Shown here: positions 2,831 to 32,704 of the stretch, piece after piece
How positions within the stretch are numbered: position 1 is the stretch's first letter
Layout of the letters: each line of letters opens with the position of its first letter
Source: a bacterium BMS3Abin14
GTDB taxonomy: Bacteria; BMS3Abin14
Direction: 5' to 3'
DNA length: 64,000 nucleotides
NCBI GenBank assembly: GCA_002897695.1
Contig: BDTG01000041.1
Location: 20,101-84,100, forward strand
Notes under the pieces: model-generated
Databases searched by the model: none
What the model saw: the letters and a program-made list of their open reading frames with translations, nothing else
Told to the model about the DNA's origin: nothing
Made by a program: the position numbers and the translations under genes

Positions 2831-4264
2831 ATGTCTTCAAATAACAGCCGTCCCTTGATGACGGTAGTGCTCGCAGCCGGCAAGGGAACGAGGATGAGTT
2901 CATCCATCACCAAGGTACTTCACCTTCTAAGGGGTAAACCCCTCATCCTTCATGCCGTCGGCCAGGCCCGTTCCGTATCATCCGCAGGCATTATTGTGGT
3001 CCTCGGCCACCAGGCCGAGAGGGTGCGTTCCCTCCTCACTGCGGTTGATCCGGGCCTCGAATTTGTTTTGCAGGAACCCCAACTGGGCACCGGGCACGCG
3101 ATGATGCAGTGTATTGGAAGGCTTGAAGGATTTCCCGGCGATGTTCTCGTCCTTTCCGGGGACGTTCCCATGCTGACCCGGAATACCATTGAGCGGCTCC
3201 TTCGGGCTCATCTGGAAACGAAAGCTGTATTGTCGGTTCTCACGTCGTATCCGCCAGATCCTGTGGGGTATGGAAGGATTATTCGGGACAGGGCAGGTTT
3301 TCCCTCCGCCATCAGGGAACAGAAGGATCTGCTTCACGGAGAGGATGAAATCCTGGAGATCAACACCGGCATCTATGTTTTCAACGCTGCTTTTCTCACC
3401 CGTGAGCTTCCCCTCCTTTCCAACAACAACGCACAGGTGGAGTATTATCTCACCGACCTGGTGGAGGCGGCGTACAGGGAAGACAAGCCCGTCGGCATTT
3501 TTTCACTCGACGACCCGCTGGAGGCTCTGGGGATCAATACTCATCCGGAGCTGGCCACAATGGAGGCAGCCATGCGTCAAACCACACTGAAAAAGCTCAT
3601 GGAGTCCGGAGTCAGGATGATCGACCCGTCCACAACGTACGTGGATGACACGGTAACGATGGAAGGTGAGGTTACCCTGTATCCGATGGTCTGTATCTAC
3701 GGCGCCACATCGGTTGAAACCGGCACCGTTATCCATCCCGGATCGGTGATCACCGATTCTAAAATCGGAAAAAACGTGGTAATCCACCCTCATTCGGTTA
3801 TCAGCGAGGCAATAATCGAGGATGACGCGAACGTAGGGCCCTTCGCCCGTCTGCGCCCGGAGGCCAGAATTGGGAGAAATGCAAAAATAGGGAATTTCGT
3901 AGAGGTAAAGAAATCCAGCATCGGCGAAGGAAGCAAGGTGTCCCACCTGACCTATATCGGGGATTCAACCATCGGCAGCAATGCCAACGTAGGGGCGGGT
4001 TCCGTAACGTGCAACTACGACGGTTTCAGCAAACATCACACCATCATCGAGGACGGTGTTTTTGTGGGCAGCGGGACCATGATGGTGGCTCCCGTCACCC
4101 TTGGCAAAAACTCCATGGTTGCTGCGGGATCAACGATTACGAAGGACGTCCCCGCCGATGCCCTCGCACTGGGCAGATCACGTCAGGAAAACAAGGACGG
4201 GTGGACCATTGCCTGGCGACGAAAAATCGCCGAAAGCAAGTCCGACAAAAAGGAGAACTCCTGA
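2831..4264 (+). CDS. glmU: Bifunctional UDP-GlcNAc pyrophosphorylase / GlcN-1-P N-acetyltransferase GlmU. The likely true start is ATG 2831; the track ORF starts at 2639.
   Basis: N-terminal LAAGKGTRM nucleotidyltransferase motif, then a C-terminal left-handed beta-helix of hexapeptide repeats (IGxxxxIG...). The stop overlaps the glmS start. Confidence 0.9.
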   Translation: MSSNNSRPLMTVVLAAGKGTRMSSSITKVLHLLRGKPLILHAVGQARSVSSAGIIVVLGHQAERVRSLLTAVDPGLEFVLQEPQLGTGHAMMQCIGRLEGFPGDVLVLSGDVPMLTRNTIERLLRAHLETKAVLSVLTSYPPDPVGYGRIIRDRAGFPSAIREQKDLLHGEDEILEINTGIYVFNAAFLTRELPLLSNNNAQVEYYLTDLVEAAYREDKPVGIFSLDDPLEALGINTHPELATMEAAMRQTTLKKLMESGVRMIDPSTTYVDDTVTMEGEVTLYPMVCIYGATSVETGTVIHPGSVITDSKIGKNVVIHPHSVISEAIIEDDANVGPFARLRPEARIGRNAKIGNFVEVKKSSIGEGSKVSHLTYIGDSTIGSNANVGAGSVTCNYDGFSKHHTIIEDGVFVGSGTMMVAPVTLGKNSMVAAGSTITKDVPADALALGRSRQENKDGWTIAWRRKIAESKSDKKENS

Positions 4265-6093
4265 TGTGCGGAATTGTCGGTTACATTGGTCCGAGAAACG
4301 CCGCCGAGATTCTTCTGGACGGCCTCACGCGCCTCGAATACCGGGGGTACGACTCCTCCGGGATCGCTGTCCTGAATGAGGGCGTCCTGGGGCTTCGCCG
4401 CAGTGTGGGGAAAATAGGGGAACTGAAAAAAGCCCTGGACGACGATCCGGTGAAGGGGTCCATAGGTGTAGGTCACACACGTTGGGCAACCCACGGCAAA
4501 CCGAGCGAGGAAAATGCCCATCCCCACCGCGACTGCTCCGGCAAGCTCGTGGTGGTCCATAACGGGATTATCGAGAATTTCCGCGCCCTTCGGGAGGGAC
4601 TGCTCCATCGTGGGCACACGGTAGCCTCCGAAACCGACACCGAGATCATAGCCCACCTTATCGAAGAGAACTACGATGGGGACCTCCAGGAAGCAGTCCG
4701 CCGCTCACTGGAACTGATCAAGGGTGTCTACGCCCTGGTGGTTCTCCACGCCGACAAACCGGACCGGCTTGTAATCGCCCGCAACGGACCGCCCCTGGTT
4801 GTAGGTTTCGGTTCAGGTGAGATGTTCGTGGCGTCGGACATCCCTGCCGCCCTGCACCATACACGCCGATTCGTCTTCATCGACGACGGCGACATAGGGA
4901 CATTGACCTCCACGTCCCTTGACCTGTACACCGATCAGGGCCGGAAGGCGGACCCCGATCCCATCACCATTACCTGGGACCCCATCATGGCCGAAAAAGG
5001 GGGGTACAGACATTTCATGCTGAAGGAGATCAACGAGCAGCCTCAGGCTATTGCCGATACCATCAGAGGACGTTTTTTCGACGATGGGGATGGACCCCAG
5101 CTGGACGATCTGGACCTTTCTGAAACCTTCATCAAGGGAATCGACAGGTGCGTAATACTGGCCTGTGGGACATCATGGCACGCCGGTCTGGTGGGTCAGT
5201 TCCTCATCGAGAAGCTGGCCGGAATCCCCACCAAGGTGGATTACGGCTCCGAGTTCCGCTATCGTGATCCAATTGTCGGGGAAAACACGCTGGCCATTGC
5301 TATTACACAATCGGGGGAAACTGCCGATACCCTGGCCGCCACTCGCGAGTGCCGTGACAAGGGCGCTACGATCCTCTCCATCTGCAACGTGGTAGGAAGC
5401 ATGATCACGAGGGAATCCGACGGAGTTATCTACACCCATGCCGGGCCTGAGATCGGGGTGGCATCCACCAAGGCTTTTACAACCCAACTGGCCTGTCTCG
5501 TCCTGCTCGCCACGTACCTGGGCAGACGCAGAAAGGTAATGGATCGGGAACAGTCACAGCTAATAATGGATCAACTCGCGGCACTTCCCGGACAGATGGA
5601 ACAGATCCTCGATCAGGTGAAAAAGATTGAAGACATTGCAGAGAAATTCTACAGGTATTCCAATTTCCTGTACCTGGGAAGGGGCCTTCACTACCCCATA
5701 GCCCTGGAAGGAGCTCTGAAGCTCAAGGAGATCAGCTACATTCACGCTGAGGGATATCCCGCGGGAGAGATGAAACACGGCCCAATTGCCCTTATTGACG
5801 AGAACATGCCGGTGGTTTTTCTGGCTCCCAGGGACAGCGTCTACGAGAAGATCCTCGGCAACCTCGAGGAGGTCAAGGCCAGGGGCGGGATCGTCATCGC
5901 GGTTGCCGACCATGATGATAAGGCCCTGCTGGACACGGCGGATCATCTCATCACCCTTCCCCGCACAAATCCCATCCTGACCCCGATCCTGTCAACCGTG
6001 CCACTGCAGCTTTTCGCCTACCATGTCGCAGTCCTCAGGGGAACGGACGTGGACCAGCCCAGAAACCTCGCAAAGAGCGTAACCGTGGAGTAG
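4264..6093 (+). CDS. glmS: Glutamine--fructose-6-phosphate aminotransferase GlmS. The start is ATG 4264; the track ORF is extended to 4009.
   Basis: N-terminal MCGIVGY Ntn-amidotransferase nucleophile, two SIS domains and a C-terminal ...KSVTVE. TGATG overlap with the glmU stop. Confidence 0.95.
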   Translation: MCGIVGYIGPRNAAEILLDGLTRLEYRGYDSSGIAVLNEGVLGLRRSVGKIGELKKALDDDPVKGSIGVGHTRWATHGKPSEENAHPHRDCSGKLVVVHNGIIENFRALREGLLHRGHTVASETDTEIIAHLIEENYDGDLQEAVRRSLELIKGVYALVVLHADKPDRLVIARNGPPLVVGFGSGEMFVASDIPAALHHTRRFVFIDDGDIGTLTSTSLDLYTDQGRKADPDPITITWDPIMAEKGGYRHFMLKEINEQPQAIADTIRGRFFDDGDGPQLDDLDLSETFIKGIDRCVILACGTSWHAGLVGQFLIEKLAGIPTKVDYGSEFRYRDPIVGENTLAIAITQSGETADTLAATRECRDKGATILSICNVVGSMITRESDGVIYTHAGPEIGVASTKAFTTQLACLVLLATYLGRRRKVMDREQSQLIMDQLAALPGQMEQILDQVKKIEDIAEKFYRYSNFLYLGRGLHYPIALEGALKLKEISYIHAEGYPAGEMKHGPIALIDENMPVVFLAPRDSVYEKILGNLEEVKARGGIVIAVADHDDKALLDTADHLITLPRTNPILTPILSTVPLQLFAYHVAVLRGTDVDQPRNLAKSVTVE

Positions 6094-6166
6094 CGTCGGA
6101 ACTTCACCATGCGCAACTTTACTGGAAGGGACATTATGACATCCTGCAACAGGGCGATTTTCAGAT

Positions 6167-8416
<2,250 letters not shown>

Positions 8417-8483
8417 AAAGCCTGTCCAGATCTGTTTCAGACTCGGGAAAACATCCCTTCGAAGCTTTCATGCCGGCGGCAGC

Positions 8484-9899
8484 CTACGGGGCGGACGGGT
8501 TAAAGATCTCCATGGACGTGTCACCGGGGTTTCCCCCGATGATGAGAACCCTCCCGTCGGAAAGAAGTGTGGCGGTATGACCACTCCGCGGTATCCTCAT
8601 CATCCATGGCACCTCCCGGGAGGTGTGGGTAACCGGGTCGAAGATCTCTGCGGATCTGGCAATATCAACGGTTACTCCTCCACCAGTGATAAGAATTTTC
8701 CCATCTAGTAATTCGGTTGCAGTATGAAATATCCTAGGTTTTTTTAAAACGCCCAAAAATGAATTGCTTATATTCTTACTTAGGTCAAAGATTTCCACGT
8801 CTTGCAACTTTCCAGAATTTCCAATTCCGCCTGCGATAAATATCCTACCATCCGAAAGTTTTGTTACTGAAAAATCTTTTTTTGGCTGACTCAAGTTTAT
8901 CAAGCCTTTATCAACTTCTAATTGCAAATCGAATGTTTCAACCTCATCGGTATAATTAATGGCGATCATGCCACCTAAACATGCCAAATTATCCACCGAG
9001 GCCGAACATTGAACATCTTTCTTCTCATTCATAATGCCCATATCGGGAGCAATTCCCTCGCTAAGTAGATTTATGTCTATTTTTGTTGTGTTTATTATCC
9101 AATTTGAATTTTCGTCATACCCACCAAGCAAATAGATCTGCTGGCCATAGATGGCGGGGAAAAATTCCGTCCGGGTGTTGTAGAGAAAGTGAGGCGCGCA
9201 TTGTTCATTCGCAACATCAATGGCTTCGTATTCGTTATCCAGCGTGCCAGTCCCTCCCAAAAACACAAAAACCCGGCCGGAAATAGGGTCATAAAGGGCC
9301 TTCTGCCGGGTTCTGTAATCGTTGAGTGAACACCCGAATGCGGCGGTGGTCGTCCCCTGGTTCGAATAGATAACCCTCTCGATGCTTTTTGTGCCGAGGG
9401 AGCCGCCCAGGACAAGGACTTCATCGTTGCCTATAGCCACGGCCGAGTGGTACATCCTCGGCCAGGTGAGTGATCCGGCGTAATCGAACCCTCCGGATAT
9501 GCTCAACTGCACGTCATGACTGCTTGTCGCACCGGCCGGGATGGATACGGCCTGCTGTGTCTTCTCCATGATGACCACTCCGCCGGTAATGGCCTGTACC
9601 GTGAGGTCGCATCCACCTTTAAGGTCCAGTGTGCCCAGGCTCAGGCTGCTGTCACTGCCCGGTGAGTCCCAGAACGGCGGGGAAGCTTCCCCGCAATCAA
9701 CAATGGCCCGGATGGTGTCTATGTAGGCAGTGCCGGCGGAGGCGTCAAGCATCGAAATATTCAATAAATTTTCCCAGTTTTGAGGAAATCTGACATGCAA
9801 GGATAACTTCCCGGTCGGGTCCTCCCCACCACACCCCGATGCGGCAATGAGTATTGCTGCCGCCGCGAACCCAAGCAGCGGCCGAAGGAAAATCTTCAC
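8484..9899 (-). CDS. Kelch-repeat beta-propeller lipoprotein. The likely GTG start at 9899 overlaps the stop of the upstream gene in GTGA.
   Basis: N-terminus VKIFLRPLLGFAAAAILIAASGCGG is a lipoprotein signal with an LAASGC lipobox. Multiple Kelch blades with GG doublets (LGGYDE, IAGGIGN, ITGGG, IIGGNPG). Contains an AT-rich patch; see findings. Confidence 0.7.
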   Translation of the reverse strand: MKIFLRPLLGFAAAAILIAASGCGGEDPTGKLSLHVRFPQNWENLLNISMLDASAGTAYIDTIRAIVDCGEASPPFWDSPGSDSSLSLGTLDLKGGCDLTVQAITGGVVIMEKTQQAVSIPAGATSSHDVQLSISGGFDYAGSLTWPRMYHSAVAIGNDEVLVLGGSLGTKSIERVIYSNQGTTTAAFGCSLNDYRTRQKALYDPISGRVFVFLGGTGTLDNEYEAIDVANEQCAPHFLYNTRTEFFPAIYGQQIYLLGGYDENSNWIINTTKIDINLLSEGIAPDMGIMNEKKDVQCSASVDNLACLGGMIAINYTDEVETFDLQLEVDKGLINLSQPKKDFSVTKLSDGRIFIAGGIGNSGKLQDVEIFDLSKNISNSFLGVLKKPRIFHTATELLDGKILITGGGVTVDIARSAEIFDPVTHTSREVPWMMRIPRSGHTATLLSDGRVLIIGGNPGDTSMEIFNPSAP

Positions 9900-11191
9900 C
9901 AGGTTACCTCCACCTGGGTTCCGCCCCCGCCGCTGCCCGCAGAACCGGCTACCACAGCCAGCAGGACAGCTCCACCCAAAAGGAGATACCACCTGATGTG
10001 GCCGGGCGCCACGGACTCCTCCGATAGCTCTTCACCCAGGCCTCCGGCTTCAGGTACGTTGAGAAAATAGCCGGGGTTGGCGGTTATCTCGCTGTCGTTG
10101 TCCCATTCCAATGGTTCGAGCATGGAAAGCAACCTGCCCGGCTCGGCTGGAGGCTGTTTGCCCCGGATCGTGAGGATCCCCTGGGAGACCGGAGCGCCCT
10201 CGCTGTCAATCAGGGTCACCTTTAATTCATCCTCGTCTATCCATCCGAGAACTACATAGTCAACTCCAAGTTTCAGCGCCAGATGAGCGAGTGATCTGTT
10301 ATCGCCCGACATCACACGGTCAGCGAAGAATTTTTCCGGTGGAGCGGTGGGCCCTGCGGGTGAAAGGTGGAACCTGACCTTCATCGTCTGCCACTTTTCG
10401 AGGATAATCCTCTGCCGATCCGCCTCGTATCCTGGCCTTTGTATCTCTATGAAGTGCGGGCCGGGGGCAAAATCCAGACCCTGTATGGGTGCATTACCCA
10501 TTTCCCGGCCGTCAATGATAACCAGAGAGGCCGGGGGGTCTCCCTCGATGGAAATCGTCGAGCGTGGGCCTGAAATAACACGCCCGCGGGCTATTTCAAA
10601 TCGTTGGATAATTTCGGGGGAATACCGATCCCGGGTTAATTTGGCATCGGGCCTGATAGCGGCGGCGGCGATAAAGGCATCGTCAAAATGATCGTCTCCC
10701 AACGCCCTTTTATCCATTCCCTCCAGAAGCAGGCTTTTAAAGAGAGCGTCTGCCTGAAGGGCCGAGTCGGGAAGGGCAGAGATGATGGTGGTGACTTTTC
10801 CCAGCAGGTTCAGTGAACCGTTAAAATCAAAACGGTAATAGGCTGCCCAGGCATCGTCCAGAACTTCCCGAGCCCTGCCCCTCAGGCCGAGGGCGGCCGC
10901 CCGAGTGGACTCCTCAAGGGCGCTCGTTTCTTCCAGCCAGTCCAGGAGGATCTTCTCCGTGGCATTCTCATCCTTCACCAGGAGCAAGGGATCCGCGTTC
11001 ACCTTGTCCAATTCCCCTGTCCATACTGTCTGGATATCGGCAGGAAGGGGGGCCGGGGGGCCGATGATTGCGATGGTGGAAACTCCGCCGGCTGCGAGCA
11101 GGGGGGAGGCCTGAACCAGCAGAAAAACAGGCACGAGCGCCATAGCGACTATTTTAGTGAATAACCGGAGGTCCCTCATCCCCATTCTCAC
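9896..11191 (-). CDS. Exported PEGA-domain protein with C-terminal membrane anchor
   Basis: Signal-peptide-like N-terminus, a PEGA-like segment (LVIIDGREMGNAPIQGLDFAPGPHFIEIQRPGYE) and a C-terminal hydrophobic helix followed by a Gly-rich tail. Start uncertain: 11191 or an internal Met near 11143. Confidence 0.55.
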   Translation of the reverse strand: MRMGMRDLRLFTKIVAMALVPVFLLVQASPLLAAGGVSTIAIIGPPAPLPADIQTVWTGELDKVNADPLLLVKDENATEKILLDWLEETSALEESTRAAALGLRGRAREVLDDAWAAYYRFDFNGSLNLLGKVTTIISALPDSALQADALFKSLLLEGMDKRALGDDHFDDAFIAAAAIRPDAKLTRDRYSPEIIQRFEIARGRVISGPRSTISIEGDPPASLVIIDGREMGNAPIQGLDFAPGPHFIEIQRPGYEADRQRIILEKWQTMKVRFHLSPAGPTAPPEKFFADRVMSGDNRSLAHLALKLGVDYVVLGWIDEDELKVTLIDSEGAPVSQGILTIRGKQPPAEPGRLLSMLEPLEWDNDSEITANPGYFLNVPEAGGLGEELSEESVAPGHIRWYLLLGGAVLLAVVAGSAGSGGGGTQVEVTW

Positions 11192-12149
11192 CCTCTGAAA
11201 ACTCCGCTTGATTCCTGTCGTATTCCTCGTCGTCCCAGCGACTGAGAGTTCTGTAATCCCTGACTCTCCTGCCCACGTAGGAATAGAGAAACAACAGGGT
11301 TATCAGTCCCCATACCGAGGCCGTACTGGTAATGACCGGCACCCACATCGACTTGACTCTGGCGTACTGCTTAAAACCGTTCAGCAATCCGACAAAGGAT
11401 ATGTCATACGCGCCGTTGACTGCCTGGGCCATATTGCCCTTCTCCAGAAACGAGGTGACAAGCCTGGCCACAGCGTTATTCCCGTATCTTCGCATGAGGT
11501 ATTGAACAAAAAGGTAGCTTTGAGCATAAGCGACCTCGGCGCGCGAGGGGTCCTCCGGAAAGTTGACGCTTATGGCCTCAAACGGGATTGTGCTCCCGGT
11601 CACCTCAGCCCAGGAAAGGTGAAGGAGACGGGGGATCCCCATTTCTCCCGAAATGAAGGTCGCAACACCCTCGGAAAGCCACCTCGGAAACCGGACATCC
11701 CATCGGTTTTCCGCCTCACCCATGACGAGATGCACAATCTCGTGTTCAAGCAGTGACCAGTACTGCGTCCCCGATTCCCCGAGTGCGCCGGGAGTCATTA
11801 AAATAACTACCCCATAGCGAGGATAGGTAAGGGCCCCCGCCCATTCGGGAGCCGAGGAAGCAGCCGGTTGGAGCGAAACAAACTCTTCCTTGCTGCCTGC
11901 GATAAATATTTTATACGGCCCCCCCACCGGAAGCCCAAGCAAGTTCGAAACCTCATTCAGAAACTGGGAGGCTTTCATCAGGACATCCTCAGCCAGATCA
12001 CTCGATTGGCCGCGATATTTGACCTCAATGGTGGGACCTGACAATACTTTCCAGGTTTCGTCATGCGGGGGTTCAGCGGGAACAGCCTGCGCGTTCAGCA
12101 GAAAAACGGCCGCAAGTACCACAAGAATGAGCGGAGTGCGAATTTTCAA
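11154..12149 (-). CDS. Zincin-like (HExxH) exported protein with C-terminal TM anchor, putative metallopeptidase. TTG start overlaps the yggU stop.
   Basis: Signal peptide MKIRTPLILVVLAAVFLLNAQA. HEIVHLVMGEAENRW...WLSEG fits a zincin HExxH+E arrangement. C-terminal TM helix and an acidic cytoplasmic tail. Confidence 0.55.
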   Translation of the reverse strand: MKIRTPLILVVLAAVFLLNAQAVPAEPPHDETWKVLSGPTIEVKYRGQSSDLAEDVLMKASQFLNEVSNLLGLPVGGPYKIFIAGSKEEFVSLQPAASSAPEWAGALTYPRYGVVILMTPGALGESGTQYWSLLEHEIVHLVMGEAENRWDVRFPRWLSEGVATFISGEMGIPRLLHLSWAEVTGSTIPFEAISVNFPEDPSRAEVAYAQSYLFVQYLMRRYGNNAVARLVTSFLEKGNMAQAVNGAYDISFVGLLNGFKQYARVKSMWVPVITSTASVWGLITLLFLYSYVGRRVRDYRTLSRWDDEEYDRNQAEFSEGENGDEGPPVIH

Positions 12150-15711: not shown

Positions 15712-15788
<77 letters not shown>

Positions 15789-15836: not shown

Positions 15837-15912
15837 TGGTGGGCGGTACAAGGCTCGAACTTGTGACCCCCGGCTTGTAAGGCCGATGCTCTCCCAACTG
15901 AGCTAACCGCCC
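15837..15912 (-). tRNA. tRNA-Val(UAC), CCA encoded
   Basis: Acceptor GGGCGGU/ACCGCCC, D-arm GCUCAGUUGGGAGAGC, anticodon loop CUUACAA, T-loop UUCGAGC, discriminator A. Confidence 0.9.
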
Positions 15913-21788: not shown

Positions 21789-21873
21789 TGGTGCGAGAAG
21801 GGGGACTCGAACCCCCACACCGTAAGGTACTGGGTCCTAAACCCAGCGCGTCTGCCGGTTCCGCCATTCTCGC
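21789..21873 (-). tRNA. tRNA-Leu(UAG), type II with long variable arm, CCA encoded
   Basis: Acceptor GCGAGAA/UUCUCGC, anticodon stem-loop CUGGG-UUUAGGA-CCCAG, long extra arm and T-loop UUCGAGU. Confidence 0.85.
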
Positions 21874-29577: not shown

Positions 29578-30382
29578 CCGTCATTTGGAAAGAATAGGCG
29601 ATCTTTCTCGTGGATGATACGGAAAAACCTGCTGCACTCGCAGGTGAAAAACGTGCCTTTTGAAGGGCCTTGACCGCCGCCCGGTCAAGCATGGAAAATC
29701 CGCTTGACCGGAACACCGAGACGCCGCCCAACCCTCCGTCCCTTCCTATCCTCACCGAGAGGATGACCTTTCCCTCCTGACCCCGTCTTCTGCACCAGGC
29801 GGGGTATATGGGCTCGGGCAGATCGGTTGCCTCTGCCCTGATGAAATCAAAACCCGGATCATTGCCGGAGATACCACCCGGAAGGCCCTCCCTGGGGGGG
29901 ACGGCCCCATAGGCAAGCATGGGCTGCTGCGGTCCCGTTCGGCCTGTTTGAAATGCATGGTCTCGATCAGGGGCGCCGGAACTGCCGGGGGGTGCGGGCG
30001 GGGGCGCGTCCTTTCCGGCTGTTGTTTCCCGCTCCGCTTCGTGAGGTGAGCCGGGCGGAGGAGGCGCTGGGGTTTTCATCTCGGCAGCCGCGATCCGCTC
30101 CCTGACTACCCCGGGTTTTTGGACCGGCGGCATGGCCTCCGATTTCGGAACCGTTTTTTCAGTTTTGGACACCGGTGATACCGGGGAAACCGAGCGAACC
30201 CGGCCGGCGGCGGGAGCCACGGATTCACTGTGTCCAAATGATACTATATCCACGACTATCGGACCGGCAGCCGCGTCGGGAGGGGCGATCCCGTTTCCTG
30301 ACCCGGACTGTCCCAGTACCAGGGCGATCAAGGCCGCATGAATCCCCAACGAAAGGGACAGGGGCCTGAAAAGGTCCATCAT
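29564..30382 (-). CDS. tonB: TonB family energy transducer
   Basis: N-terminal TM, Pro-rich spacer and the C-terminal TonB domain (YPAWCRRRGQEGKVILSVRIGRDG...). Confidence 0.8.
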   Translation of the reverse strand: MMDLFRPLSLSLGIHAALIALVLGQSGSGNGIAPPDAAAGPIVVDIVSFGHSESVAPAAGRVRSVSPVSPVSKTEKTVPKSEAMPPVQKPGVVRERIAAAEMKTPAPPPPGSPHEAERETTAGKDAPPPAPPGSSGAPDRDHAFQTGRTGPQQPMLAYGAVPPREGLPGGISGNDPGFDFIRAEATDLPEPIYPAWCRRRGQEGKVILSVRIGRDGGLGGVSVFRSSGFSMLDRAAVKALQKARFSPASAAGFSVSSTRKIAYSFQMTDAGN

Positions 30383-32241
30383 AAATCCGCTCTGAACCCG
30401 AGGTATCCCGATATTCCGGGCGTACCGTAGCCTAGAACTGTCTGGTAATCCTCATCAAGGAGATTTTCGACCCTGCCGGTGATTTCGAACCCATGGGCAA
30501 CACTAAATGCGCCCGACAGATTGACAAGGGTATATCCGTCCAGCGTTACCCTGACAGGTGTATAGGTTGGTGGAGGGAAATCGAGGTCGGCGTTATCACC
30601 GACATAGAGAATATCCAGCCCGACGTGGCTCCCCGTTGACGGGCTGTAGTCCGCGGTAAACCCTATGCTGTCCCGGGGAACACGGAGCAGTTTCTCTCCG
30701 GTTGCCTCATCCTCTGACCGCGTATATGTGTAGTTGAGGCTCAGTTCGACCGAATCCGTCAGGAACAGTCTGCTGATGAATTCCAGACCGCTGGTATTGG
30801 CCCCGAGGGTGTTCTGGTAGGTCATGGTGCCGAAATCGAAGTCGATGAGGTTGTCGAACCTGTTGTCAAAATATGTCAGTCCAAGAGAAGCCCTGCCGCC
30901 CATAAGATCCTGGTCTGCCCCGACATCCCAACTGCCACTTTCCTCCGGCTGAAGTCCTGGATCTCCGTAGATGGAGAAAAGCTGGTAGAGGGACGGGGCC
31001 TTGAACCCTGTACCGTAGGTCGCCCGAAATCTGGTTCCCGACTCATGCAGCAGATACGCGGCGGTGAGGCGGTAGGTCGCCTGTGTTCCAAAGTCGCTAT
31101 GGTCGTCGATCCTGGCCCCCACCGTGGTGATGAACCTTCCGCCCATGTCGTTTTGCTCCAGAAAGTAGATGCCTGTCGTGCGTGCCTTCTTCTCGGCAAA
31201 GGTATCCGTCTTCCCTCTTTCCTTCCCGGATTCCGCCCCCACTGTCAGGGTAACGACGGGGCTGAGATACAGGTTGTTCTGCCAATCCAGCTTGACCAGG
31301 CCGCTGTCGAATTCGCTCCTGTTGGGAGGATTGATATCGTTGCGGCTGTTGTCCGTATAGGAGATGCCCACGATCTGCTCCCAGGCGCCTCCTGCCAGGG
31401 AGATGGTCCCTTGCCCTCGCATAATGAGTTCCTTCGTACCCGAAACGTGGTCCGGGTCATCCCCAAAGGCGCCCCCGAAATTGTCCAGATCGGCCTTCGC
31501 ATCGGAATATCGAAATATGAGATCCAGTGCGAGACTGTCGGAAGGTTCAATGCCAACCTTGCCCGACCAGGTAGTATTAGTATATCCGTCCTTCTCCGTG
31601 TTGCCGTCCCTCTCGTCGGCAGCCGATATGCCGTCGGTGTCGAAATGCGAGAGGGAAAGGGAGTAGTTGCTTCGGCCGGTCCCCCCGCTGGCCTCTACAG
31701 CTCCCCGGATCGTCCCGAAGGAGCCAGTCTCACCTGTCAGCACTACATGGGGTTTTCCCCTGCCCCTCCGGGTGATGATGTTTATGACCCCGCCAATGGC
31801 GTCCGAACCGTAAAGAGGGCTTTGCGGACCGCGCAGAACCTCGATCCTCTCGATGTTGTCCGTTGTCAAATTGGCGAAGTTGAAGATTCGCCCGGTGGAG
31901 ATGGGATCGTTGACCTCCACACCGTCAATAAGGACCAATGTGTGTCCTGATTTTGCTCCCCTGATGAAAACCGTGGCCGTCTGTCCCGGGCCGCCGTTGA
32001 CGTTGATTTTTATTCCCGGCACCCCTTCAAGGGCCTCCAGGACGGTTCTGGCCCCTTTTCGCTGGATATCCTCGGCGGTGATTACCGTGATCGAACTTGC
32101 GACCTCCTCGATGGGGGTCTCAATACGGGTGGCTGTTACCACGACCTCCTGAACGTCCTCTTCTCCGGCCCCTGCCCAAAGGTAAGCTGGACTGGAAAGC
32201 ACCATGACCAATACACCCGTGATCAGCGCAGTTTTGCCCAT
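30379..32241 (-). CDS. btuB: TonB-dependent outer-membrane receptor, BtuB-like. Start ATG 32241 with RBS aggagtga; the track ORF is extended to 32268.
   Basis: Signal peptide, plug domain (TonB box-like VVVTATR, IEVLRGPQSPLYGSDAIGGVINIITRRG) and a C-terminal barrel ending in an aromatic residue. Confidence 0.85.
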   Translation of the reverse strand: MGKTALITGVLVMVLSSPAYLWAGAGEEDVQEVVVTATRIETPIEEVASSITVITAEDIQRKGARTVLEALEGVPGIKINVNGGPGQTATVFIRGAKSGHTLVLIDGVEVNDPISTGRIFNFANLTTDNIERIEVLRGPQSPLYGSDAIGGVINIITRRGRGKPHVVLTGETGSFGTIRGAVEASGGTGRSNYSLSLSHFDTDGISAADERDGNTEKDGYTNTTWSGKVGIEPSDSLALDLIFRYSDAKADLDNFGGAFGDDPDHVSGTKELIMRGQGTISLAGGAWEQIVGISYTDNSRNDINPPNRSEFDSGLVKLDWQNNLYLSPVVTLTVGAESGKERGKTDTFAEKKARTTGIYFLEQNDMGGRFITTVGARIDDHSDFGTQATYRLTAAYLLHESGTRFRATYGTGFKAPSLYQLFSIYGDPGLQPEESGSWDVGADQDLMGGRASLGLTYFDNRFDNLIDFDFGTMTYQNTLGANTSGLEFISRLFLTDSVELSLNYTYTRSEDEATGEKLLRVPRDSIGFTADYSPSTGSHVGLDILYVGDNADLDFPPPTYTPVRVTLDGYTLVNLSGAFSVAHGFEITGRVENLLDEDYQTVLGYGTPGISGYLGFRADL

Positions 32242-32393
32242 TTCATCACTCCTCGCCCGGCCATGCAATGTAAAAACTTCCCGGAGACGAAAAAATCCCG
32301 GACCTCTTTATCGAGATCCGGGATGCCGTTTTTCATCCGTCTTTGACAGCGGTCAGACCCTGGCCGCGAGGGTTCCGTTCGCTCTGTCCAACA

Positions 32394-32560
32394 GGCAGGT
32401 CTTCTGGCTTCCGGATTACCCTACTCGCCGCGCCTTCCCGCCCTTCGACAAGCGCAGGACTAACCCTGGACTTCCTTTGAGCAGTGACTAATTGCGGCTT
32501 TCGTCCCCGGTTACAGCGGCGGGTCCGCGACGGATTCTCACCGTCTTCCCTTGGCCTGTT
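32394..32560 (-). ncRNA. Cobalamin (AdoCbl) riboswitch in the btuB leader
   Basis: The minus strand reads AAGGGAAGACGGUGAGAAUCCGUCGCGGACCCGCCGCUGUAACCGGGGACGAAAGCC ... AGUCACUG ... GGGAAGGCGCGGCG ... AGCCAGAAGACCUGCC, which contains the conserved stems and the B12 box of RF00174. A hairpin plus U-run (ccggatctcgataaagaggtccgggatttttt) follows as the expression platform. Confidence 0.8.
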
Positions 32561-32704
32561 AAATCAACAGTAGGGCACGATCGTCGGGATGTCAAGAATG
32601 GCGAGGCCTCAACGCATGGATCTTTATCTAACAGGGATGAAGGGGATAGAGGGGATAAACCTGCCATAAAACCCTATTTTGCCTTGTTTGCAGTGAGGTA
32701 CGCA

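Follow-up and report, generated by a model that had tools for sequence, protein, structure and literature searches.

The AT-rich patch inside a Kelch-repeat lipoprotein gene of the bacterium BMS3Abin14 is likely to be the local copy of a hypervariable allelic cassette that occurs throughout the gene family, with alleles that diverged anciently and are swapped by homologous recombination. The patch lies in a 64,000-nucleotide stretch of contig BDTG01000041.1, referred to here as the window. A preliminary description had suggested the replacement of a cassette by one from a low-GC donor. The replaceable cassette is upheld by our analysis, but a single or recent low-GC transfer is not, as the trough in GC content is present in all 14 orthologues. 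The same description held that an AT-rich segment shared by relatives would point to an ancient and selectively maintained feature. The segment is indeed shared, but its sequence is not what is maintained, varying more than any other part of the gene; across the family, conservation concerns where the patch lies, how it folds and its base composition.

The Kelch gene is the third and final gene of a previously uncharacterised Peptidase_MA_2 / PEGA / Kelch-lipoprotein envelope operon (Table 1). Its start codon, a GTG at 9899-9897, overlaps the TGA of the PEGA gene, to which it is translationally coupled; residues are numbered here from the codon after the GTG (K, 9896-9894). The PEGA-domain protein has a signal peptide and a C-terminal membrane anchor, and its gene aligns without breaks between relatives (80-88% nucleotide identity), with no hypervariability. 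The operon adjoins cell-division genes of this uncultured lineage.

Table 1. Features of the Kelch-lipoprotein operon, in window positions
Feature	Positions	Strand	Basis and remarks
Peptidase_MA_2-family protein gene, first of operon	11154..12149	minus	ORF; Pfam PF13485 on orthologues, conserved synteny
PEGA-domain envelope protein gene, upstream in operon	9896..11191	minus	ORF; Pfam PF08308 on orthologues, conserved synteny
Kelch-repeat lipoprotein gene	8484..9899	minus	ORF and sequence; 471 aa; stop 8486-8484
Signal peptide and lipobox (MKIFLRPLLGFAAAAILIAASG followed by C)	9831..9899	minus	Direct sequence reading; predicted lipidated Cys is residue 22
Family-specific N-terminal all-beta domain, aa 29-130	9507..9812	minus	AF2 secondary structure; GC3 0.53-0.73
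Kelch repeats 1 to 3 up to the 'YLLGG' strand, aa 136-256	9129..9491	minus	GG doublets; GC3 0.57-0.77
AT-rich hypervariable cassette, aa 257-412, three Kelch repeat units	8661..9128	minus	Change-point, composition, orthologue comparison
Conserved GC-rich C-terminal Kelch repeat, aa 413-470	8487..8660	minus	Conservation; substitution cluster relative to L001

The Kelch gene product is predicted by its signal peptide and lipobox to be a bacterial lipoprotein. The sequence AASGC was read as a lipobox (pattern [LVI][ASTVI][GAS]C), and C22-G23 is invariant in 13 of 13 aligned orthologues. The cassette itself contains two cysteines that are invariant in the orthologue alignment, which, in a lipoprotein, suggests an extracytoplasmic location. 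The architecture is an N-terminal beta-sandwich followed by seven Kelch repeats. Pfam matches above the curated cut-offs include Kelch_4 (80 bits against a cut-off of 21.6, E=1e-22), Kelch_1 (62.5 bits, E=2e-17) and Kelch_6 (56.3 bits). Seven 'hhhhGG' motifs, at aa 164, 214 and 258 (the GG doublets of repeats 1-3) and at aa 308, 356, 405 and 454, recur with a periodicity of 48 residues, and the register is continuous across both cassette boundaries. The AlphaFold2 model (pLDDT 86.5, pTM 0.85) is all-beta, with ~28 strands beyond aa 136, and its top PDB matches are Kelch propellers, namely KLHL12, KLHL3, Keap1 and the SAKe designs (E ~1e-16, target-normalised TM ~0.7). The model thus predicts a beta-propeller with four-stranded blades, the number of which is 6 or 7, as there are seven repeats by sequence and six blades in the best templates.

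The cassette extends from the GG doublet of repeat 3 (aa 258-259) to slightly beyond that of repeat 6 (aa 405-406). It had been described as coding for Kelch blades in frame and without interruption; this is the case, and the peptide quoted at that time is present in the translation. Residues of the fold core are kept within it (GG308/309, GG356/357, W266, C297, C306, F342, R388 and H391), and the core fold residues are invariant among the orthologues. On its 5' side, Kelch repeats 1 to 3 are GC-rich backbone and are the 5' homology arm in cassette exchange. The 3' homology arm is the C-terminal Kelch repeat, which is better conserved in the family than any other part and has a mean pairwise amino acid identity of 53-69%. 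The N-terminal domain is GC-rich and conserved among close relatives (96-98% nucleotide identity between the orthologues L002 and L003).

GC content in 150-nt windows is 0.35-0.41 over about 8625-9150 and 0.51-0.65 on either side. In 300-nt windows the patch minimum, 0.36, is the lowest of the 64 kb (mean 0.556, sd 0.044). Along the Kelch gene GC3 falls from 0.60-0.77 outside the patch to 0.23-0.45 within it. A maximum-likelihood fit with two breakpoints placed the trough at codons 257-412 (nt 9128-8661), with GC3 of 0.32 inside and 0.67 outside and a log-likelihood ratio of 26.4. None of 300 codon shuffles scored as high (shuffled maximum 11.9), and the next-best trough score among the other 37 long ORFs of the window was 9.6. 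Sliding-window GC, GC3 and the change-point fit therefore agree that the dip reported in the preliminary description is real, and the limits given there (8690-9130) are accurate to within about 30 nt. The reported flip in codon usage was also recovered, the measured shift being toward AAA/AAT/ATA/TTT/GAT.

The compositional change is not confined to third positions. GC at positions 1+2 is 0.35-0.44 in the cassettes of the family (0.38 in that of the window) versus 0.50-0.57 outside, and K/N/I/F are enriched and A/R/P/G depleted among the encoded amino acids. In every lineage the stretch of low GC, which affects each of the three codon positions, has the same extent as the divergent block, and the composition supports long residence under AT pressure. 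Strand-specific deamination, considered in view of a negative GC skew on the plus strand, was rejected because A3 and T3 rise in concert in the cassettes. Promoter and terminator scans of the patch gave matches that were not above chance, and neither an Rfam family nor tandem repeats were found in it.

Our sample of the family comprises 14 orthologous sequences from about nine lineages, several of them near-duplicates, with conserved synteny and protein identities down to about 36%. The sequence L010, in which the gene has a frame change after the N-terminal domain, was left out of the codon analyses and used at the DNA level only. The GC3 trough lies at the homologous position in each of the 14, at 0.19-0.33 inside and 0.54-0.78 in the backbone, and the two values show no correlation across the family (r=0.22). 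Trough length varies across the family from 94 to 227 codons, corresponding to two to about four-and-a-half Kelch repeats, with three in the window. The cassette alleles are still homologous, at 30-60% amino acid identity. Locus GC ranges from 0.48 to 0.59, and none of the orthologues or loci recovered is low in overall GC. In the L005/L008 pair, Kelch repeats 5-6 combine conservation (dN 0.07) with high GC (GC3 0.67-0.93) and have the same fold-defining residues, so that composition follows variability in both directions.

Searches for further family members were complicated by the repeats. A scan of genome contigs with the full alignment relied on generic Kelch motifs, so that unrelated Kelch proteins made up 78 of 80 loci, with CP070719.1 and QIEJ01000207.1 as the only orthologues. 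A scan of metagenome contigs anchored on the N-terminal domain gave five loci, two of which were new and usable (L090 and L091). An exhaustive HMMER search was dominated by giant multi-Kelch proteins, as repeat scores add up, and is used only as a negative result. A search of a 5.8-billion-protein word index with the patch alone had no matches, but this null is uninformative because even the 98%-identical protein P0001 was missed, a limit of short queries. The nearest relatives of the patch are the orthologues' own cassettes at 44-46% amino acid identity, about as distant as the flanks are. No phage-borne cassette was found among 2.9 million viral contigs.

Between the close relatives L002 and L003, nucleotide identity drops from 96-100% in the flank to 51-68% within the cassette, in keeping with the frame-preserving recombinational mosaic over about three blades that had been proposed. 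The flank has dS 0.06 and dN 0.01, and the cassette dS 1.68 and dN 0.49. As synonymous sites are saturated and dN/dS is about 0.3, positive selection in the cassette is not demonstrable, and by this comparison the contrast is one of allele replacement and not of selection in situ. In every close pair the trough boundaries are those of a block of saturated divergence. Trough and block, respectively, span aa 216-428 and 215-412 in L002/L003, 253-394 and 261-390 in L007/L091, 231-457 and 231-455 in L094, 225-325 and 228-305 in L005/L008, and 222-416 and 226-416 in L004/L095. The 5' divergence breakpoints vary by pair (aa 215-261), and whole-locus alignments break at the cassette only.

The converse arrangement also occurs. 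The window and L001, an independent assembly, are 99.7% identical over 8984 bp, with 26 mismatches, 16 of which cluster at 8475-8616, just 3' of a cassette that is 99.8% identical; dS and dN are 0.19 and 0.06 in this 3' flank and 0 in the cassette. Similarly, L007 and L090 have a cassette dS of 0.04 versus a flank dS of 0.13-0.42. Because strains with differing flanks share identical or near-identical cassettes in these two cases, the cassette is not a fast-mutating segment. Taken with the divergent pairs, the alignments show that homologous recombination replaces alleles as whole units, with breakpoints in the conserved flanks and often near the conserved beta-strand-GG motifs. Such replacement can leave close relatives with unalignable cassettes and strains with diverged flanks with near-identical ones.

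Trees of the flank and the cassette are incongruent. The clade of L007, L090, L091 and L094 had 100% bootstrap support in the flank tree and 0% in the cassette tree, as against 0% and 82% for the clade of L091, L094, L005 and L008, and 100% and 0% for that of L004 and L095, with some replicates reaching saturated distances. Contigs L098 and L091 end at the 3' boundary of the cassette, and these two breaks may hint that several cassette alleles coexist in one population. For a relative with 88% PcrA identity, the contig stops at the cassette boundary and yields no allele, although the position of the break is informative.

In the explanation that we favour, the N-terminal domain and the first and last Kelch repeats make up a conserved GC-rich backbone, and the internal block of repeats persists as many alleles of ancient divergence. 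There is about an even chance, in our estimate, that this polymorphism is maintained by balancing or negative frequency-dependent selection on a predicted exposed, ligand-binding part of the propeller. The selective agents could involve a phage, bacteriocin or predator receptor, or a self-recognition surface. The three variable blades are probably an interaction surface, and the operon is likely a contact point with phages, toxins or neighbouring cells.

The AT-richness of the cassette might itself follow from the polymorphism, rather than marking a donor, a step that we regard as credible while retaining real doubt about it. Allele classes too diverged to form heteroduplexes with one another would escape the force that raises GC in the rest of the genome, whether this is GC-biased gene conversion or a weak selection that loses its efficacy once the population splits into allele classes. 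Under universal AT-biased mutation pressure, the cassette would then approach its mutational equilibrium (GC3 about 0.2-0.3), and the drift to AT would pull its amino acid usage toward K/N/I/F. We argue for gene conversion or weak selection from the coincidence of the boundaries, and an unsampled AT-rich reservoir of cassettes would predict the same static picture. Published work has dealt with AT-biased mutation in bacteria (PMC2936535) and with selection on bacterial GC content (PMC2936529), and recombining bacterial genes have been reported to be GC-richer (Lassalle et al. 2015, PMC4450053). A non-recombining cassette near its presumed mutational equilibrium between recombining, GC-rich flanks would fit this last relationship. 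Those studies compare whole genes across genomes, whereas here the contrast is within one gene and transcript, which leaves no difference in expression level, strand or chromosomal position.

Only tentatively, then, the cassette may be viewed as a within-gene natural experiment in which recombination-dependent processes, and not expression-linked codon selection, hold genomes above the AT equilibrium. Across about nine lineages whose backbone GC differs, two portions of a single transcript stand at GC3 values near 0.7 and near 0.25, and they would differ only in their ability to recombine with other alleles. On the same tentative reading, the one lineage in which part of the block is no longer polymorphic has regained high GC there. 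The contrast offers a test bed for deciding between GC-biased gene conversion and selection as determinants of bacterial GC. If population data bore the explanation out, it would be unusually clean evidence for recombination-dependent maintenance of GC, and the rule that low GC means foreign origin would be wrong for loci under balancing selection.

The low GC of variable loci has classically been taken as a sign of horizontal origin (PMC2800850), and the sharp boundaries of the cassette and the independence of its GC3 from that of the host backbone could also be caused by repeated import. Cassettes would then evolve in unsampled AT-rich relatives, mobile elements or phages, and their AT content would be unameliorated donor composition. 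We consider this unlikely. Among the 1.84 billion cluster representatives covered by the HMMER search, no protein exceeds 40% identity to the patch, the viral contigs contained no relative of it, and no recovered orthologue locus is low in overall GC. Flanks of different lineages are just 45-66% identical at the nucleotide level, which is too low for homologous exchange across lineages, so a separate AT-rich reservoir would be needed for each, and the part of the L005/L008 block that is no longer variable is GC-rich. A single recent replacement from a low-GC donor in this genome, which would equally produce a sharp in-frame compositional switch, is very improbable: it is contradicted by the syntenic orthologues that share the trough, the same protein and viral searches gave no donor, and the patch and the orthologues' cassettes are no further apart than the respective flanks. 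The preliminary description had also raised the possibility of a chimeric join of contigs from two organisms, and an abrupt GC change in apparently metagenomic sequence could have such a cause. We give this almost no credence, as L001 has the same junctions and a 99.8% identical patch while its 26 differences from the window are scattered, thirteen other assemblies have a matching architecture, and both junctions are crossed by the reading frame, by the 48-residue repeat register and by the single domain of a confident AF2 model.

Alternatively, AT-richness could itself be selected and the variability be secondary, through slowed translation (rare codons aiding the folding or export of the propeller), low mRNA structure, or a nucleoid-associated silencer that tunes expression. 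The conserved position of the trough over deep divergence and the strong switch to AT-ending codons are what such selection would produce. This is nonetheless a rather improbable account, because positions 1+2 and amino acid content are shifted too, the length of the trough tracks the divergence blocks and not a fixed structural element, repeats 5-6 of L005/L008 have high GC3 with identical fold-defining residues, and promoter-like and terminator-like sites are at chance level with no Rfam match. Extreme divergence limited to one segment, with saturated synonymous sites, might instead reflect programmed variation by a diversity-generating retroelement (DGR), a targeted deaminase, a site-specific inversion or shufflon, or silent cassettes acting as donors in gene conversion. 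The alternative silent cassettes that had been suggested were not found within the 64-kb window, where blastn and tblastn with the patch returned only itself and weak matches to other repeats of the Kelch gene, and the window contains no DGR template repeat for the cassette. Pfam-annotated neighbourhoods of the orthologues had no reverse transcriptase, and the boundaries of the window cassette had no inverted repeats, L002 and L004 having nothing beyond short pairs at chance level. Tandem arrays are likewise lacking, the rise in A and T at third positions is symmetric and neither strand- nor base-specific, dN/dS is low, and strains with different flanks have near-identical cassettes. By these sequence features the cassette would not qualify, within 64 kb, as a pilE/pilS-type or shufflon system, and we regard programmed variation as highly unlikely.

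The allelic cassette that we propose is a known kind of hypervariable replaced locus at an intragenic scale. Replacement flexible genomic islands have a border peak of mostly synonymous substitutions and can have near-identical content in diverged backbones (Lopez-Perez et al. 2014, PMC4033161), and metagenomic islands have low GC and cell-surface functions (Pasic et al. 2009, PMC2800850). In aquatic and halophilic prokaryotes such islands carry O-chain, glycosylation, S-layer and giant-protein clusters (PMC4033161; PMC2800850). The cassette resembles them in its fixed position between conserved flanks, its equivalent content that is nearly unalignable between close relatives yet sometimes near-identical across diverged backbones, its border peak of mostly synonymous substitutions, its atypically low GC, its cell-envelope product, and the homologous recombination in its flanks. 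It differs in that the unit is 0.3-0.7 kb within one ORF, not 10-100 kb with many genes, and in that it is a whole number of propeller repeats, bound to keep the reading frame and to fold together with blades that do not vary. Replacement islands hold different genes, whereas the cassette alleles are homologous. Because the cassette occupies 94-227 codons of a single ORF and has homologous alleles, we describe it as replacement-island-like and not as a genomic island in the strict sense.

Mosaic surface-protein genes, such as those for the flagellin central domain, the Helicobacter vacA mid-region, neisserial porins, transferrin-binding proteins and Borrelia ospC, have conserved ends and a hypervariable middle that is shuffled by recombination, presumably under balancing or frequency-dependent selection, with trees that disagree with those of the flanks. 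The cassette is similarly an intragenic segment far more diverged than its flanks, with incongruent trees. Those genes belong to host-associated pathogens under immune selection, whereas the cassette encodes lipoprotein Kelch blades in an uncultured environmental lineage. Its added feature is the GC3 shift from 0.67 to 0.32, co-extensive with the block and recurring across family-level divergence; our literature search yielded nothing usable on whether flagellin genes or other mosaic antigen loci have a documented GC trough. As in DGR variable regions and pilE/pilS conversion, variation is localised while the scaffold stays constant, and ligand binding is predicted for the Kelch protein. Unlike in those systems, there is no template or silent copy in the 64 kb, the cassettes are stable between strains, and all bases are affected. 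The cassette is also 3-5 times longer than typical DGR variable regions.

A sharp patch of low GC and atypical codons is routinely read as recent transfer or misassembly, and caution is warranted in annotation, given that the patch described here is old and lineage-wide. Intragenic islets of this kind fragment metagenome assemblies, as in the two public contigs that stop at the boundary, and the cassette is usable as a strain marker.

GC content falls to its lowest value in the 64-kb window inside the Kelch lipoprotein gene. It is 0.35-0.41 over approximately 8625-9150 versus 0.51-0.65 on either side (150-nt windows), and at a 300-nt scale it bottoms out at 0.36, compared with a mean of 0.556 (sd 0.044) for the window. 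GC3 of the gene drops from 0.60-0.77 to 0.23-0.45. In a two-breakpoint likelihood fit the trough spans codons 257-412 (nt 9128-8661), where GC3 is 0.32, as opposed to 0.67 outside. The log-likelihood ratio (LLR) of the fit was 26.4, a value reached by none of 300 codon shuffles (maximum 11.9); the best among the other 37 long ORFs of the window was 9.6. The AT-rich in-frame patch that the preliminary description placed at 8690-9130 is confirmed, with coordinates accurate to about 30 nt. The patch peptide quoted there matches the translation, and codon counts bear out the switch to AAA/AAT/ATA/GAT/TTT.

The ORF with the second-highest trough score has its GC3 dip at codons 17-56 (0.42 vs 0.77), which is probably not significant, since it lies within the shuffle range of the Kelch gene. 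The two next-lowest GC segments lie mostly outside long ORFs, one upstream of a glmU-like ORF and the other in the region of divIVA/yggT, and resemble the usual AT-rich DNA of intergenic stretches or short genes, not intragenic cassettes.

Coordinates of features in the window and on two orthologous loci
Feature	Coordinates	Strand	Remarks
Kelch lipoprotein gene	start GTG 9899-9897, stop 8486-8484	minus	ORF reading
ORF with second-highest GC3-trough score	35395-36804	+
Next-lowest GC segment	2351-2875		GC 0.41-0.42 (300-nt windows)
Next-lowest GC segment	12876-13725		GC 0.41-0.42 (300-nt windows)
Minor low-GC segment	15251-15550
tRNA gene	15715-15788	-
tRNA gene	15840-15912	-
tRNA gene	21792-21873	-
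Cobalamin riboswitch	32377-32574	-	Rfam RF00174, 95.9 bits
629-aa ORF	30379-32268	-
glmS mechanical ORF	4009-6093	+
Orthologue on MAG 'Proteobacteria bacterium SZUA-204'	L010:3923-5240		QIEJ01000207.1
Contig tail of near-identical strain	L001:8985-9120		NODE_1264, ERZ1742235

The Kelch gene is the third and last of a translationally coupled operon, following genes for a Peptidase_MA_2 family protein and a PEGA-domain protein, and its GTG start overlaps the TGA of the upstream gene. In relatives, this operon adjoins yggT, divIVA, and pcrA. The encoded protein starts with a signal peptide and lipobox (…LIAASG-C), whose Cys is invariant across all orthologues, and gives strong Pfam Kelch matches. 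A confident AlphaFold2 model (pLDDT 86.5, pTM 0.85) predicts an all-beta N-terminal domain (aa 29-130) and, after it, a propeller; the PDB structures it matches best are Kelch propellers that bind ligands, among them KLHL12 and Keap1. We number residues from the codon after the GTG (K, 9896-9894), so that residue n begins at 9896-3(n-1) and the actual protein has one additional N-terminal Met. Seven 'hhhhGG' repeat motifs occur in the sequence, at aa 164, 214, 258, 308, 356, 405, and 454; the trough spans three repeat units, opening at the GG of repeat 3 and closing just beyond that of repeat 6.

Within its uncultured lineage, the window PcrA shares 64-88% identity with other members; with other named matches it shares at most 49%. 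Gene-content differences around the locus are small. In the window glmS is followed directly by pcrA (6093-6167), while a CLC-channel/CBS gene intervenes at four orthologous loci (L004, L005, L097, and L098). In L002, L004, L007, L008, and L095 the Kelch gene and pcrA are separated by a thioredoxin-like/hypothetical gene of about 200 aa, which is absent from the window (8416-8484) and from the near-identical strain L001.

A protein search returned one full-length orthologue at 98% identity (P0001) and others at 54-36%, and orthologue DNA was taken from 13 further assemblies. In all retrieved orthologues GC3 dips to 0.19-0.33 at the homologous position, with flanking GC3 of 0.54-0.78 and locus GC of 0.48-0.59. 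Such sharing is what the preliminary description had named as refuting a recent transfer, and it contradicts the earlier proposal of one from a low-GC donor. It also excludes a chimeric contig join, as does the independent L001 assembly, which is 99.7% identical to the window across 8984 bp and uninterrupted through both patch junctions. Nor does the patch point to a different taxon than its flanks: it is 44-46% identical in amino acids to the cassettes of L002-L004, and the N-terminal region is 41-52% identical to those of the orthologues, so the two have the same phylogenetic affinity. Among 1.84 billion protein representatives none exceeded 40% identity to the patch, and the viral contigs searched held no relative. 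When the 147-aa patch, a short AT-coded query, was run against a word index of proteins, the null was uninformative: even P0001, which holds a 99% identical stretch, was missed. The L010 orthologue, collinear at the DNA level with L002 (85.5%), shifts frame after the N-terminal domain, either through a sequencing error or because the gene is a frameshifted pseudogene.

Between close relatives, nucleotide identity collapses within the trough and recovers outside it. Change-points for GC3 and for divergence, fitted independently, were concordant in each pair, with block lengths of 94-227 codons depending on lineage. Whole-locus alignments of relatives are continuous across the PEGA gene and the flanks; the trough segment is the one place in which they break. 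Low GC and hypervariability are thus two aspects of one block.

Nucleotide identity (30-codon windows) and fitted block boundaries for pairs of orthologous loci
Pair	5' flank	Trough	3' side	GC3 trough (aa)	Divergence block (aa)
L002/L003	96-100% (aa 1-190)	51-68% (aa 208-400)	78-90%	216-428	215-412
L007/L091	80-91%	42-60%	85-97%	253-394	261-390
L007/L094	80-90%	47-57%	about 70%	231-457 (L094)	231-455
L004/L095	60-78%	33-48%	about 79%	222-416	226-416
L005/L008				225-325	228-305

The flanks of L002 and L003 differ by a dS of 0.06 and a dN of 0.01, whereas their cassettes have a dS of 1.68 (saturated) and a dN of 0.49. Positive selection on amino acid changes in place could not have lifted dS about 28-fold, leaving either anciently diverged alleles joined by recombination or local hypermutation. 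The latter is ruled out by near-identical cassettes with differing flanks: in L007 and L090 the cassette dS is 0.04 and the flank dS 0.13-0.42, and only one of the 26 differences between the window and L001 over 9 kb is in the cassette. Sixteen of these 26 are clustered directly 3' of it, at 8475-8616, and are mostly synonymous (dS 0.19, dN 0.06); such a border peak of substitutions is a reported signature of recently exchanged replacement genomic islands (PMC4033161). The flank and cassette trees conflict, with some bootstrap replicates giving saturated-distance warnings. The clades {L007, L090, L091, L094} and {L004, L095} each had 100% bootstrap support from flanks and 0% from cassettes, and {L091, L094, L005, L008} had 0% and 82%. 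L010 and L002 share a cassette type (about 85% identity throughout), while the L003 cassette differs. Two independent public contigs, the 65-kb contig of L098, the closest distinct relative (PcrA 88%), and that of L091, end at L098:12787 (…RSAEIFDPVTH) and L091:2878 (…GGGATQQVM), both within a few codons of the 3' boundary of the cassette. Assemblers behave in this way at places of strain difference, which suggests assembly-graph branching from coexisting alleles. The patch is thus very probably a recombinationally exchanged, family-wide allelic cassette, and the full explanation, with its proposed selective and compositional mechanisms, is likely. Silent alternative cassettes, which the preliminary description proposed to look for, were not found in the 64-kb window, where the patch has neither a further copy nor a template. 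Its boundaries there carry no inverted repeats. We found no tandem arrays, no Rfam match in the patch, and no promoter-like or terminator-like sites there above chance.

The locus is of a known kind; what is new is the protein family and the uncultured environmental lineage. Classical mosaic surface-protein genes of pathogens have hypervariable middles, which the Kelch cassette resembles. Like replacement flexible genomic islands, it occupies a fixed site between conserved flanks, its content is unalignable, exchange proceeds by homologous recombination in the flanks, SNPs peak at the border, GC is low, and the function is one of the envelope (PMC4033161; PMC2800850), but it is not a multi-gene island, being intragenic, in-frame, and made of whole repeats.

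The compositional shift is symmetric, with A3 and T3 each roughly doubling. GC at codon positions 1+2 is 0.35-0.44 in the cassette versus 0.50-0.57, and K, N, I, and F increase while A, R, P, and G decrease, indicating long evolution under AT pressure, beyond synonymous codon choice. The GC3 of the cassettes does not follow that of their backbones (r=0.22). Flank DNA identity between lineages (45-66%) is too low for homologous exchange across them, so AT-richness must be upheld separately by each lineage. Composition also tracks variability in the other direction, as repeats 5-6 of L005/L008 have ceased to vary (dN 0.07) and show a high GC3 (0.67-0.93). Bacterial mutation is AT-biased (PMC2936535), selection and/or GC-biased gene conversion has been described as keeping genomes above the AT mutational equilibrium (PMC2936529), and GC is higher in recombining genes (PMC4450053). 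Allele classes too diverged to pair might escape the GC-raising force, or subdivision of the population among alleles might weaken selection on them; either way they would relax toward a GC3 of about 0.2-0.3. We tentatively favor such escape or weakened selection. The main alternative is that the low GC reflects an AT-rich reservoir of cassettes, as yet unsampled. The most interesting aspect is the exceptionally clean base-composition contrast within one transcript, which is relevant both to the heuristic that low GC marks foreign origin and to the debate over gBGC versus selection.

Fold-core residues and two invariant cysteines are kept inside the cassette, so all alleles should fold as the same propeller, with different surfaces on three blades. 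The retained fold and the allele dynamics make it about an even call that balancing or frequency-dependent selection acts on a putative interaction surface of this presumably extracytoplasmic lipoprotein. The protein might be a receptor that phages, toxins, or predators exploit, or the surface might serve in recognition.

The final 136 bases of the L001 contig (ENA) do not match the window. They open with AGATCGGAAGAGCGTCGTGTAGGGAAAGAGTGT..., which we take to be Illumina adapter sequence, followed by A-rich junk, so the contig ends in a chimera with untrimmed adapter. The glmS ORF has an upstream GTG start that adds about 86 spurious residues; the true start is evidently at the MCGIVGY motif. 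The first two tRNA genes adjoin the minor low-GC segment, and the cobalamin riboswitch is immediately upstream of the 629-aa ORF on the same strand.
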